This document shows, piece after piece, positions 20,341-23,572 of a stretch of 64,000 nt of DNA (within the stretch, counting starts at the first letter, position 1; each line of letters opens with the position of its first letter). A model generated the notes under the pieces. The model saw only the letters and a list, made by a program, of their open reading frames with translations, did no database searches and was not told the DNA's origin. This DNA is from a virus, in IMG/VR virus record IMGVR_UViG_3300031952_000005, positions 1-64,000 of that record, one strand, 5' to 3'. The position numbers and the translations under genes were made by a program.

Positions 20341-21144
20341 ATGAAAAGAACAGTAAATGGCATGATTGCCTATGGTAAAATGTTAAGTACAAAATTACCA
20401 GAAAGAACAAAAACGTATACTCCTATTTCTCACAAAGACGTTGTCAGTCGTGTGAGAACAGAAATTACTGCAGCAGGATATGTTATTACTGGCGAAGATT
20501 ACAAGTGCACTCAAGATGGCACTGTAGCAATTGGAAATTTTAAACTGAATTATAAAGCAGATCCAGATATTGAGTTGTCTGCAAACTTTATGAATTCATA
20601 TAATAAACAATATGCATTTAGATTCTCTCTAGGAGGATTGGTAAAAGTATGTATGAACGGTATGATGTTGTCAAACAGTAAGTTTGGTGCATATAAACGC
20701 GTTCACAAAGGAGCTGCAGATATACTTGCTGCTGGTAAAATAGCAGAGTTTATTAAAGATTCAGATGAATACTGGTCAACTTTAGTAGAACACAAAGAAA
20801 TGTTGAAAAGTCGCACTGTTACAAAACCAATTGCTTACATAATTCTTGGTAGATTATTCTTTGAACATGAACTATTAACTACTATGCAGTTAAACATGAT
20901 TAAGAAAGAAATAGAAAAACCAAGTTTTGAGTATAACGCAGATCTTGATAGTGCATGGGTGTTATATAATCACATCACTCTTGCATTAAAAGAAGCACAT
21001 CCTTCTACCTGGATGGATGATCAAGTAAAAATGCATGATGTATTTTGTGAAACATTTGGTATTAATACTTCTGATGGAGAAGATGAAGAAGACATATTGA
21101 TGGATATTTTAGAAGAAGAACTTGTAGATGATTTACCATTTTAA
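20341..21144 (+). CDS. DUF932-like protein
   Basis: TYTPISH, NSYNK, VCMNGM, AWVLYNHIT..LK; ends in DDLPF. Confidence 0.75.
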   Translation: MKRTVNGMIAYGKMLSTKLPERTKTYTPISHKDVVSRVRTEITAAGYVITGEDYKCTQDGTVAIGNFKLNYKADPDIELSANFMNSYNKQYAFRFSLGGLVKVCMNGMMLSNSKFGAYKRVHKGAADILAAGKIAEFIKDSDEYWSTLVEHKEMLKSRTVTKPIAYIILGRLFFEHELLTTMQLNMIKKEIEKPSFEYNADLDSAWVLYNHITLALKEAHPSTWMDDQVKMHDVFCETFGINTSDGEDEEDILMDILEEELVDDLPF

Positions 21145-21150
21145 ATTAAT

Positions 21151-21172
21151 TGGGGAGTGTAAAAGCTCCCCA
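21151..21172 (+). terminator. GC-rich hairpin after DUF932
   Basis: TGGGGAG-tgtaaaag-CTCCCCA; the U-tract is weak. Confidence 0.55.
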
Positions 21173-21186
21173 TAAATTATATTACT

Positions 21187-21342
21187 ATGAAAGATTTTAT
21201 AACCATTCAGTATGCTAAAATCTGTGTAAGATTTAGTAATTCAGAACTTGACAAAAAAGAGATACTAAGAAGGTATCTTAAACGTTACCACAATATAAAC
21301 ATTAGTAAAACATGTATTAACAATAGATTTAGAGAATCATGA
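21187..21342 (+). CDS. Unannotated 51-aa basic protein (MKDFITIQYAK...NNRFRES)
   Basis: Translated by hand; its TGA overlaps (ATGA) the start of the kinase remnant. Confidence 0.6.
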   Translation: MKDFITIQYAKICVRFSNSELDKKEILRRYLKRYHNINISKTCINNRFRES

Positions 21343-21389
21343 TAATAGGTATTAACGGTAAAATTGGGAGTGGTAAGTTTGCATATTAG
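21339..21389 (+). pseudogene. Orphaned original 5' end of the dNMP kinase (MIIGINGKIGSGK-FAY*)
   Basis: The first 13 codons parallel the start of 21990..22778 (MIIAIGGKIASGK) and break right after the P-loop Lys. Confidence 0.85.
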
Positions 21390-21408
21390 ATGTATATTTT
21401 AGTTTTAA

Positions 21409-21440
21409 TTTGCATTTTTAAATTTTTATATTTAAGTTTG
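21409..21440 (+). promoter_or_regulatory. Bacteroidota-type promoter within the HNH insert
   Basis: TTTG (21409-21412), 20 nt, TAAGTTTG (21433-21440). Confidence 0.65.
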
Positions 21441-21459
21441 AAACTTAAACATAAGTATT

Positions 21460-21993
21460 ATGAAAGAACAATGGAAAGATATACCTGGACATGAAGGTGT
21501 TTATCAAATAAGTAACTTAAGTAAAGTAAAAAGATTAAAAGGAAAATGTTTAGCAAAAGCTGGTAAGTATAGAAATATTTCTGAAAATATACTTACTGCT
21601 TTTCCTAATAAAGCTAGATACAATTATTTATATATTAACTTAAATAATAATGGATTAAAACAATTTAGATTACATAGATTAGTTGCTCTAGTTTTTATAC
21701 CTAATCCTGATAATTTACCAGAAGTAAACCACATTGATGGTAATAAAGAAAACAATTGTATAACAAATTTAGAATGGTGTACTAATTTAGAAAATATAAA
21801 ACATTCCTATAAAATAGGAACTCATAAAATTAGAAAGAATGATGATGCGCCAAATACTAAATTAAATAGTAAACAAGTTATGGAAATAAGAAAAAAACTT
21901 CAAGAAGGATCTTCAGGTAGAAGTTTATCTAAAGAATATAATATAAGTGAAGGAATGATTTCATTAATTAAAAATAATAAATACTGGACATGA
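21460..21993 (+). mobile_element. NUMOD4-HNH homing endonuclease
   Basis: WKDIPGHEGVYQISN (NUMOD4); HRLVA..FIPNP...VNHIDGNKENN..NLEW (HNH); C-terminal HTH. Confidence 0.93.
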
Positions 21994-22778
21994 TAATAGC
22001 AATTGGAGGCAAAATTGCTTCAGGAAAAAATAATGTATGTGAGATTATACAGGATTTATGTAAAAAACACAAAGGACCATCTTTTGAACAAAAAGCTTTT
22101 GCAGGAAAGTTAAAAACAATTGCATCTTTACTTACAGGTATTCCTGTAGAGAGTTTTGAAGACCAAGAGTTTAAGAAAGCATTGTTAGGACCTGAATGGG
22201 GAACTGTAAGAACTAATCCTCTTAACGCAATTCCTGTGTTTGGAGATGTAAAGTTTCTTCATATGATGTCTGTAAGAGAATTTCTTCAAAAACTAGGCAC
22301 AGAGGCAATGCGTGATGGATTACATAAAAATGTATGGGTGAATGCTTTGTTTGCTGATTATACAAAACGTATTGTACATTATCCTTTAACAGAGGAACAA
22401 ATTGAATATAATAATAAACAAACAGGTCCTGTACCAAGCGTAAATGAAAAATTAGATTATCCTAACTGGGTTATTACAGACATGAGATTTCCTAATGAAA
22501 TGGATGCTGTAGAAGAAAGAAAAGGTATTACTATTAGAGTGGTACGTTACCCAGAAACAATAGAACAATCAAGAGGTCCAAAAAATGTTGAGACTATTTT
22601 ATTTGATCCAACAAATCAAAAACATATGGATTTATGGAAAGCAAATTGTTTAAGAATGCATCCCTCAGAAACAGCTTTAGATGATGCTAAGTTTGATTAT
22701 GAAATAATCAATGATGGTACAATGGAAAAACTTGTACATAAAGTGCGAGAAATTCTTATAAAAGAAAATATAATATGA
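21990..22778 (+). CDS. Deoxynucleoside monophosphate kinase
   Basis: P-loop GKIASGK, FAGKLK, REFLQKLGTE, VWV, ITDMRFPNE, HPSE. Confidence 0.92.
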   Translation: MIIAIGGKIASGKNNVCEIIQDLCKKHKGPSFEQKAFAGKLKTIASLLTGIPVESFEDQEFKKALLGPEWGTVRTNPLNAIPVFGDVKFLHMMSVREFLQKLGTEAMRDGLHKNVWVNALFADYTKRIVHYPLTEEQIEYNNKQTGPVPSVNEKLDYPNWVITDMRFPNEMDAVEERKGITIRVVRYPETIEQSRGPKNVETILFDPTNQKHMDLWKANCLRMHPSETALDDAKFDYEIINDGTMEKLVHKVREILIKENII

Positions 22779-23572
22779 AAAAAGAAAAAAATAATAAAAA
22801 AAGACGTACTTTTTGTGTTGGTGACATTCACGGTAATTATCGTGCACTCTTACAATGTCTTGAGAGATCAGGATTTGATAAAGAAAATGACAAACTAATA
22901 TCACTTGGTGATATTGCAGATGGTTGGAGCGAAGTTTCTGAGTGTGTTGACACTTTGCTATCAATTAAAAATTTAGTTGCCATACGAGGCAACCATGATG
23001 TTTGGTGTTATGACTGGTTTGAATATGGTAGAACACCTCTTATTTGGACAGAACAAGGTGGTAAAGCAACTATGTCAGGTTATGTACGTACAGGTAAACT
23101 AGTAGAACAATCACATAAAGATTTTTGGAAAAATCAAATCGATTGGTACATAGATGATGAAAACAGATTGTTCATACATGCTGGATGGGGTTATACATTA
23201 AGACCAATTGAGCTTAGTATTGGAGATGTTTCTGACAGAAAATTATTTGAACTACAAGCAAAAACTTCAGTTAATGCAGGAAGTATTGCAAAAGAATGTC
23301 ACTGGGACAGAAGTTTACTAATGGGTGCAAAATTTGCATTTGGTAACAAGATGACAAAAAATGGTAAGTTCAAAGCACTAGAAGAGTTTAAAGAAGTGTA
23401 CATTGGACATACTGCAGAAAATGATGGTCCTAACCAGTATGGTAATCTATGGAATCTAGATACAGGAGCTGGATGGAATGGTAAACTTACAATAATGGAT
23501 GTTGACACAAAAGAGTTTTGGCAATCTGACTTTGCTACTCTGTTGTATCTAGATGAACGAGGAAGAGGATAA
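22775..23572 (+). CDS. PPP-family Ser/Thr phosphatase-like metallophosphoesterase (lambda NinI-like)
   Basis: GDIHG, LGD, RGNHD, HAG, WDR, GHT, LDTGA. Confidence 0.9.
   Translation: MKKEKNNKKRRTFCVGDIHGNYRALLQCLERSGFDKENDKLISLGDIADGWSEVSECVDTLLSIKNLVAIRGNHDVWCYDWFEYGRTPLIWTEQGGKATMSGYVRTGKLVEQSHKDFWKNQIDWYIDDENRLFIHAGWGYTLRPIELSIGDVSDRKLFELQAKTSVNAGSIAKECHWDRSLLMGAKFAFGNKMTKNGKFKALEEFKEVYIGHTAENDGPNQYGNLWNLDTGAGWNGKLTIMDVDTKEFWQSDFATLLYLDERGRG

Follow-up and report, generated by a model that had tools for sequence, protein, structure and literature searches.

Why should a phage carry the start of one gene twice, with a homing endonuclease gene (HEG) between the two copies? This question is raised by the deoxynucleoside monophosphate (dNMP) kinase gene of IMG/VR virus record IMGVR_UViG_3300031952_000005, a metagenome-assembled contig of 105 kb that is about 87% complete. 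The stretch analysed here, referred to as the window, comprises the first 64,000 nucleotides of this record. Within it, a stub consisting of the first 13 kinase codons is followed by a free-standing HNH gene, the stop codon of which overlaps the ATG of a complete kinase gene (ATGA at 21990-21993; Table 1). A previous sequence-only reading had described this arrangement, including the ATGA coupling of the stub to the preceding gene and the similarity of the two kinase starts. All of this is confirmed, the stub and the new start being identical at 10 of 13 residues and 26 of 39 bases. The same reading attributed the split to the HNH gene, and on this point our comparison leads to a different answer: the kinase start has probably undergone two successive endonuclease invasions, by a GIY-YIG cassette first and by the HNH cassette second.

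The junction after codon 13

Other phages have the same break after the Walker-A lysine codon. Seven other IMG/VR contigs carry a GIY-YIG gene at the same nucleotide junction, GGNAAG/TTTGCA (the slash marking the junction), and both in these contigs and in the window codon 13 is followed by TTTGCAT(A/G)TTA(A/G)AT. The seven contigs represent five or six cassette versions on four backbone types, whose DNA polymerases are 90%, 71%, about 50%, and 48% identical to that of the window, one type being the window's own. L105 has this backbone (90% for the polymerase and 87% for the DUF932 protein) with its GIY-YIG cassette still in place. According to Pfam, the cassette endonucleases combine a GIY-YIG domain with NUMOD1/3, and in each of the seven contigs the endonuclease gene is followed by a second P-loop start, fused to the kinase body. 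The window and the seven GIY-YIG loci thus have the same replace-and-insert layout, with a complete gene bearing a diverged end and a truncated native remnant beyond the endonuclease. Splicing-free entry after the Walker-A lysine, with a substitute start, is therefore real in this phage group in the form of the GIY-YIG cassettes, and the duplicated N-termini that the sequence-only reading had suggested looking for beside other phage HEGs are found at these seven loci.

The window retains a trace of such a cassette. Positions 21378-21396 are identical at 16-18 of 19 bases to the left ends of six GIY-YIG cassettes, as compared with only 12 of 19 for the HNH gene's own promoter. In intact GIY-YIG cassettes, the equivalent bases begin a -33-like TTTG promoter box. 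The FAY-stop tail that these bases add to the stub is also present in L019/L021, where 16 of 16 residues equal those of the window stub. As both the junction and the 19-base scar match the GIY-YIG cassette, the break at codon 13 does not appear to have been made by the HNH gene; on these alignments, it would be older than the HNH gene and of the GIY-YIG cassette type.

Immediately to the right of the scar, the affinity changes. Similarity to L015, a locus that carries a related HNH gene, begins at about 21397-21399 and continues to 21990, mostly at 85-97% identity, with minima of 75-80% in 60-base windows inside the HNH ORF (open reading frame). At the join, the GIY-YIG and HNH cassettes have about 3-6 bases in common. 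An abrupt change of this kind in a metagenome-assembled contig could be produced by an assembler joining co-occurring GIY-YIG and HNH variants at 21390-21400, all the more so as both variants occur naturally on similar backbones. However, 3-6 shared bases are far below any assembler k-mer, which favours an illegitimate, microhomology-mediated junction over an assembly artefact, and the orf51 side and the downstream side each have their own consistent relatives. We therefore regard a chimeric assembly as highly unlikely.

Table 1. Features around the kinase start of the window
Feature	Position	Strand	Basis and remarks
orf51, upstream ORF of 51 codons	21187..21342	+	Stop overlaps stub ATG (ATGA, 21339-21342)
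Resident kinase remnant, codons 1-13 = MIIGINGKIGSGK, the last being the Walker-A lysine codon	21339..21377	+	Protein and base comparison with relatives
Stub ORF, 16 codons: remnant + FAY + TAG (21387-21389)	21339..21389	+	ORF and relatives
Scar, TTTGCATATTA-type, putative GIY-YIG cassette left end	21378..21396	+	16-18/19 bases identical to six GIY-YIG cassettes
HNH cassette leader	21397..21459	+	93% identical to L015 leader over 21405-21464
Free-standing HNH homing endonuclease gene, 177 codons	21460..21993	+	NUMOD4 + HNH_3 + C-terminal DNA-binding tail
Complete dNMP kinase gene, 262 codons, working copy	21990..22778	+	Pfam DNMK; starts MIIAIGGKIASGK

The stub as the resident kinase start

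The stub protein is 100% identical to the kinase start of L017 and L027, the HEG-less loci with the closest backbone. At the nucleotide level, it shares 37 of 39 bases with the stub of L105, 33 with L027, and 30 with L017, and blastn aligns window positions 21335-21396 to L105 with 92% identity over 62 bases. In view of the complete protein match to L017 and L027 and the 37 bases shared with L105, the likeness between the stub and the new kinase start is not due to chance. The new start shares 30 of 39 bases with L015, 28 with L027, and 26 with L017, so that element-free relatives are matched better by the remnant than by the substitute copy.

The presence of the same 13 codons twice, about 650 bases apart, might also result from a local tandem duplication of the kinase start, followed by divergence and by the landing of the HNH gene between the copies. 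Yet each copy is closer to sequences in other phages (37/39 for the stub and L105, 30/39 for the start and L015) than the two are to each other (26/39), and the junction is common to other phages, which makes a duplication extremely improbable.

The stub ORF is probably still translated through its coupling to orf51, without kinase function. In relatives, stubs are altered at near-invariant glycines (G4V in L105, G10D in L110, and also in L107), which suggests relaxed constraint.

Probable homing of the GIY-YIG cassettes

The stubs of the GIY-YIG loci track the allele of their backbone, and the cassette ends are constant. The stub of L106 matches the allele of the HEG-less L012, and the sequences flanking the L106 insert align to the HEG-less L023 on either side. 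Similarly, L105 and L103 have the same cassette right end in front of different kinase bodies, which resemble those of L007 and L067, respectively. Constant ends combined with stubs that follow the backbone read as the signature of site-specific homing. The ratio of nonsynonymous to synonymous divergence (dN/dS) is 0.12-0.21 for pairs of GIY-YIG genes and 0.17 for the HNH genes of the window and L015; both enzymes are thus under purifying selection, or were so recently. None of the more distant GIY-YIG relatives, L211-L273, adjoins a kinase gene.

Two details of the stubs may reflect co-conversion of their last codons from the cassette. The stub of L108/L109 (2919-2957) reads GVGK, as does the cassette's substitute start, where most HEG-less alleles read GSGK or GAGK. 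In addition, all stubs end in AAG, and most empty alleles have AAA at this codon, with exceptions such as L001 and L025.

The HNH gene and its distribution

The HNH gene of the window has the architecture of a free-standing, I-HmuI-like HNH endonuclease and an intact ORF. Pfam identifies NUMOD4 (4.6e-11) and HNH_3 (7.5e-8), and the nearest solved structure is that of I-HmuI (PDB 1U3E), with an E-value of 1.2e-14 over residues 4-144. An alignment of 15 HNH homologues contains 68 invariant columns, including the histidine of the NHID motif, and the motif residues are present in the window protein. It is the only HNH_3 gene of the 105-kb genome, in which no GIY-YIG domain was found anywhere.

The HNH gene is polymorphic for presence and absence at a fixed site among relatives. 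We compared 80 IMG/VR loci encoding relatives of the kinase: the HNH gene is intact in the window and in L015, with 90% protein identity between the two, it is decayed in L067 and L060, and it is absent from L017, L027, L061, and most of the 80 loci. Its 3' end, intact or decayed, lies on the kinase ATG in all four carriers. In L015, the gene stands between a recA-like gene and the kinase gene, without a stub of 13 codons. The contexts of L015, L067, and L060 show that the regular place of the HNH gene is directly 5' of the kinase start. Outside the window, its upstream flank survives only in L015, where it starts near base 7 of the kinase ORF; at this base the homology of L015 to HEG-less relatives ends, with no match above 82% before about base 109. 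L015 is also the only locus in which a further close intact copy was found by searching IMG/VR by protein, the JGI metagenomes, and IMG/VR with the 15-sequence profile. A large protein database contains homologues at 60-88% identity (P0001-P0016).

In L067 (4744-5004) and L060 (4807-5004), only the last 36-52 HNH codons remain, as an in-frame extension of an upstream ORF. In L067, the kinase gene that follows has the common start, which is presumably sensitive to cleavage.

The leader of the HNH gene contains a promoter-like TTTG-N20-TAAGTTTG at 21409-21440. Regarding the proposal that the insert has its own promoter, the match to the consensus and its conservation in L015 speak in its favour, but the pattern TTTG-N18-21-TAnnTTTG is not enriched in the window (6 occurrences against 4.4 expected). 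The leaders of the HNH and GIY-YIG genes both consist of TTTGCAT, about 20 bases, TAnnTTTG, and then TATTATGAA at the start codon, an arrangement that resembles Bacteroidota promoters.

Empty sites and the absence of splicing

In the closest relatives of the window, L017 and L027 (90-91% identity for the DNA polymerase and 89-92% for the DUF932 protein), there is no endonuclease gene. As the sequence-only reading had predicted for HNH-less relatives, MIIGINGKIGSGK runs straight into the kinase body in these two loci and in L061, where a homologue of orf51 is ATGA-coupled directly to the unbroken kinase gene. The possibility that such relatives already had the window-type start is likewise answered, as none of 44 distinct HEG-less alleles has it. 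Truncated N-terminal tblastn matches in L007, L008, L018, L040, and L076 were rejected as further interrupted genes, as they proved to be normal starts. Among cultured phages, blastn and tblastn searches of 50,697 phage records gave distant matches only, the best being to Cellulophaga phages (67% over the phosphatase gene and at most 32% for the kinase), so that no isolate can be used as a reference.

Insertion into a conserved motif is typical of introns and inteins, and a group I or group II intron or an intein could in principle splice the stub to the kinase body. Nevertheless, the HNH gene is preceded by only about 70-80 bases of non-coding DNA and followed by none. No Rfam family matched window positions 20900-22900 up to E = 10, in agreement with the absence of intron features reported from the sequence, and in the loci L019, L046, L015, and L067, searched in full, none reached its gathering score. 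An intron was ruled out on these covariance-model results and on the completeness of the downstream kinase ORF, which has its own ATG. An intein was ruled out because the stub ends in a stop codon, the HNH gene has its own ATG and stop codon, and the kinase gene has its own ATG. Splicing is therefore hardly credible as an explanation of this locus.

The substitute start of the kinase

The window kinase has every residue that is invariant among ten homologues, and its codons 1-13 (21990-22028) take the place of the stub. Its 5' part, to about 22180, is of an HNH-linked 'GKN-VCEII' type, and the remainder is a mosaic of alleles. The start had been described as heavily recoded. Compared with the consensus, it has 14 mismatches in 45 bases, which is above the 3-7 of the closest backbones but within the 3-18 of HEG-less alleles. 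The wording was therefore too strong, and we rejected the recoding as an outlier or as a proof of immunity; resistance to cleavage through recoding of the start is plausible on the basis of the sequence.

The kinase starts beside the HNH genes of the window, L015, and L060 read GKN-x-(V/I)-C, where GKDT(V/I)G is usual, and their first 39 bases have 9-12 mismatches to the consensus. Despite this resemblance, the window and L015 are only 77-82% identical over 21990-22180, and the tract of high identity between them ends only a few bases from the kinase ATG. Synonymous divergence is 0.34 for the HNH gene and 0.91 for the first 63 codons of the adjoining kinase gene, which indicates that the HNH cassette moved after the adjoining kinase sequences had diverged. 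It also leaves the origin of the substitute start uncertain, as it may have come with the HNH gene or have been there earlier. We slightly favour its arrival with the HNH gene over its being already in place.

Over its whole length, the kinase gene alternates between conserved blocks and hypervariable inserts, of which there are three. The nearest contig differs between segments: L015 for the 5' part, L004 for the middle insert, L001 for the C-terminal insert, and L061/L038 for short blocks.

Proposed order of events

We propose the following sequence. In a first step, a GIY-YIG cassette would have entered the kinase gene directly after codon 13, that of the Walker-A lysine. At its left end, the cassette would have resembled a promoter; behind the endonuclease gene, it would have provided a start codon of its own and replacement P-loop codons, in frame with the kinase body already present, so that splicing would be unnecessary. 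The old codons 1-13 would have been left as a dead upstream stub, the kinase being translated from the substitute start. In a second step, an I-HmuI-like HNH cassette, made up of a leader and an ORF whose stop codon overlaps the kinase ATG, beside a 'GKN-VCEII' kinase 5' segment, would have replaced the GIY-YIG gene and its substitute start. Its left junction would have fallen within the promoter of the first cassette, at a microhomology of about 3-6 bases, leaving 19 bases of that cassette. Both enzymes would cleave HEG-less kinase alleles in their conserved 5' DNA, the attached kinase starts would be resistant to cleavage, and repair would proceed by gene conversion with one illegitimate end. 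Alternatively, the endonuclease gene could have been exchanged inside the cassette and then spread to L015-like phages; the break would be of the GIY-YIG type in either order.

Several observations weigh against this proposal. The HNH leader resembles the GIY-YIG leader, with which it shares TTTGCAT, the -7 box, and 'TATTATGAA', and the two cassettes may descend from one frame. The HNH enzyme may also target the P-loop codons. L015 is the sole other intact close HNH copy compared in its context, the window contig is a metagenome assembly, and the kinase 5' segment beside the HNH gene is far more diverged than the HNH gene itself. On the strength of the related leaders, it could be argued that the HNH enzyme itself recognises the Walker-A codons, was inserted after codon 13, and carries the new start as an immunity copy, the 19 bases being the left end of a shared cassette frame. 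The unusual kinase starts that follow HNH genes, whether intact or recently decayed (GKN rather than GKD, with 9-12 mismatches in 39 bases), are in keeping with this idea, as is the knowledge from T4-like phages that one endonuclease family can take the place of another at a single site (10.1101/2022.08.31.505936). On the other hand, GKN also occurs in one HEG-less allele, that of L003, and the junction is occupied by a GIY-YIG gene in seven contigs and by an HNH gene in the window only. Moreover, the HNH cassette of L015 starts at kinase base 7 without a codon-13 stub, and the scar is far nearer to the GIY-YIG left end than to the HNH promoter. A direct insertion of the HNH gene after codon 13 is therefore unlikely, and we retain the two-step history as the probable one.

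A candidate ribosome hop in related cassettes

Some of the related cassettes, but not the window, have a right end in which the substitute start is itself interrupted. It is found at L103:3600-3665, L115:2389-2454, and L289:822-887, its carriers being L103/L104, L105 (= L115), and the distant L111 (= L289), whose endonuclease is only 38% identical. The start has an N-terminal extension and, directly after G-x-G, a stop codon and a change of frame. Two forms of the site occur: GGT-TAG-GT-AAA-GAC, with a gap of 5 bases and GGT as putative landing codon, and GGC-TGA-A-GGA-AAA-GAT, with a gap of 7 bases. Between the codons of the extension and the re-spelled P-loop codons, a hairpin can form, which ends immediately ahead of the glycine codon and the stop codon. 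Across the three sequences, 4 of its 16 pairs show compensatory changes, and 100-base stretches containing it have minimum free energies of -22 to -33 kcal/mol. Behind the gap, the kinase bodies remain open for 221 and 244 codons and keep all motifs. A search with a degenerate DNA pattern returned only the same four contigs.

We consider the gap a candidate ribosome hop of 5 or 7 bases, from a glycine codon to the next glycine codon, which would restore G-S-G-K-D. Alternatively, these starts could belong to dead genes spread by a selfish element. The closest precedent is gene 60 of T4, whose 50-base bypass is carried by the MobA cassette (10.1101/2022.08.31.505936). In both cases, a coding gap lies next to a homing endonuclease gene, a stop codon follows the glycine take-off codon, a stem-loop is located at the take-off site, and the landing codon is a matching glycine codon. 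In gene 60, however, the stop codon and the take-off codon are part of the loop, whereas the hairpin described here lies just 5' of the stop codon and the putative take-off codon, and the candidate hop spans 5 or 7 bases, in a kinase P-loop.

A more far-reaching interpretation, which we put forward only tentatively, is that the kinase start is a contested landing pad. GIY-YIG and I-HmuI-like HNH enzymes, from two unrelated families, would both target the same approximately 40 conserved bases, encoding strand 1 and the Walker-A loop. An immunising 'rescue' start would come with each, and either would displace the other, in the manner of engineered home-and-rescue gene drives. One branch would be immune through a hairpin and a stop-containing gap of 5 or 7 bases that the ribosome hops, rather than through synonymous change.

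Comparison with known systems

The layout described here is already known from fungal mitochondria and yeast. In the mORF gene hybrids of Glomus atp6, atp9, cox2, and nad3 (PMC3630166), and in that of Allomyces macrogynus atp6 as cited there (Paquin et al. 1994), an endonuclease gene likewise enters a conserved gene and brings along a diverged, foreign version of the end that it displaces. Beyond the endonuclease gene, the original end persists as a remnant, which resembles element-free relatives more closely than the inserted version does, and no splicing is involved. The mORFs differ in affecting the C-terminal end, usually by in-frame fusion, so that neither a promoter nor a start codon is needed. 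In the phage case, the gene start is affected, so the element must supply signals for transcription and translation, and the host is a phage. The WHO elements at yeast FBA1 swap the 3' end of the gene at each homing event (Coughlan et al. 2020, PMC7282813). They resemble the phage cassettes in replacing the end of an essential gene at each integration, in leaving layers of remnants through repeated homing, and in allele-specific resistance, which is presumed for the phage cassettes. They differ in being eukaryotic nuclear elements with an intein-derived endonuclease, in acting on the 3' end, and in that their cleavage has been demonstrated by experiment, whereas that of the phage elements is predicted.

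Among phages, the free-standing endonucleases of T4-like phages practise intronless homing, as with mobE in nrdA of Aeh1 and mobA in a topoisomerase gene (PMC2988022), and mobC/mobE can be replaced by genes of the segH/hef type (10.1101/2022.08.31.505936). As in the present case, GIY-YIG and HNH genes lie between or inside conserved genes of DNA metabolism and are polymorphic among relatives. Endonuclease families succeed one another at one site, and the inserted sequence protects its own genome, as is proposed for the kinase loci. However, a gene entered by mobE or mobA is divided into two polypeptides, which then reassemble, whereas at the kinase gene a short piece is discarded and replaced and the single chain is kept. 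I-HmuI, of Bacillus phage SPO1, has the same NUMOD4/HNH architecture as the window HNH; it is an intron-encoded nicking enzyme, whereas the window HNH is free-standing and a putative enzyme. Our literature search found no phage paper describing a substitute gene start.

Homing endonucleases are usually thought to depend on introns, inteins, or intergenic sites in order to spare the gene that they enter. The kinase loci suggest a third route in phages, namely to enter the most conserved codons and to bring a substitute gene start. They also provide a population-level picture: some sites are empty, others are occupied, on backbones of four types, others hold decayed copies, and one has probably been overwritten by a second endonuclease family. 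Besides this range of site states, the present case adds the probable two-layer history and its datable 19-base scar. For annotation, the lesson is that short orphan ORFs next to endonuclease genes can be displaced gene ends.

Invasions of the 3' end of the kinase gene

In other relatives, the mirror-image, C-terminal form known from mORFs is present in the same kinase family. In L029 (417-1884), a complete kinase gene is followed by a different GIY-YIG gene and then by a remnant of the kinase C-terminus (from ...ETALDD). In L007 (4012-5388) and L008 (4980-6356), the kinase gene is followed by a cysteine-rich ORF of 201 residues, which has no Pfam match and which we take as another putative endonuclease, and then by a C-terminal remnant (from ...DGT). 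In all three loci, the remnant is coupled to the next gene. This one small kinase gene thus has at least four points of entry, of which one precedes the ATG, one is codon 13, and two are C-terminal motifs. Multiple entry sites help to account for the patchwork of kinase alleles and fit the proposal that the stretches exchanged between phages are delimited by nuclease genes (PMC10448857).

Surroundings of the kinase gene

Upstream of the stub, orf51 has homologues with 77-79% protein identity in L046, L038, and L061. The slot between the DUF932 gene and the kinase gene holds different small genes in different relatives. In the region 21145-21192, the backbone homology of the window to L017, L027, and L105 (85%) comes to an end, at 21192. 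Just before this point, at about 21151-21172, a G+C-rich hairpin (GGGGAG...CTCCCC) lies between the DUF932 gene and orf51.

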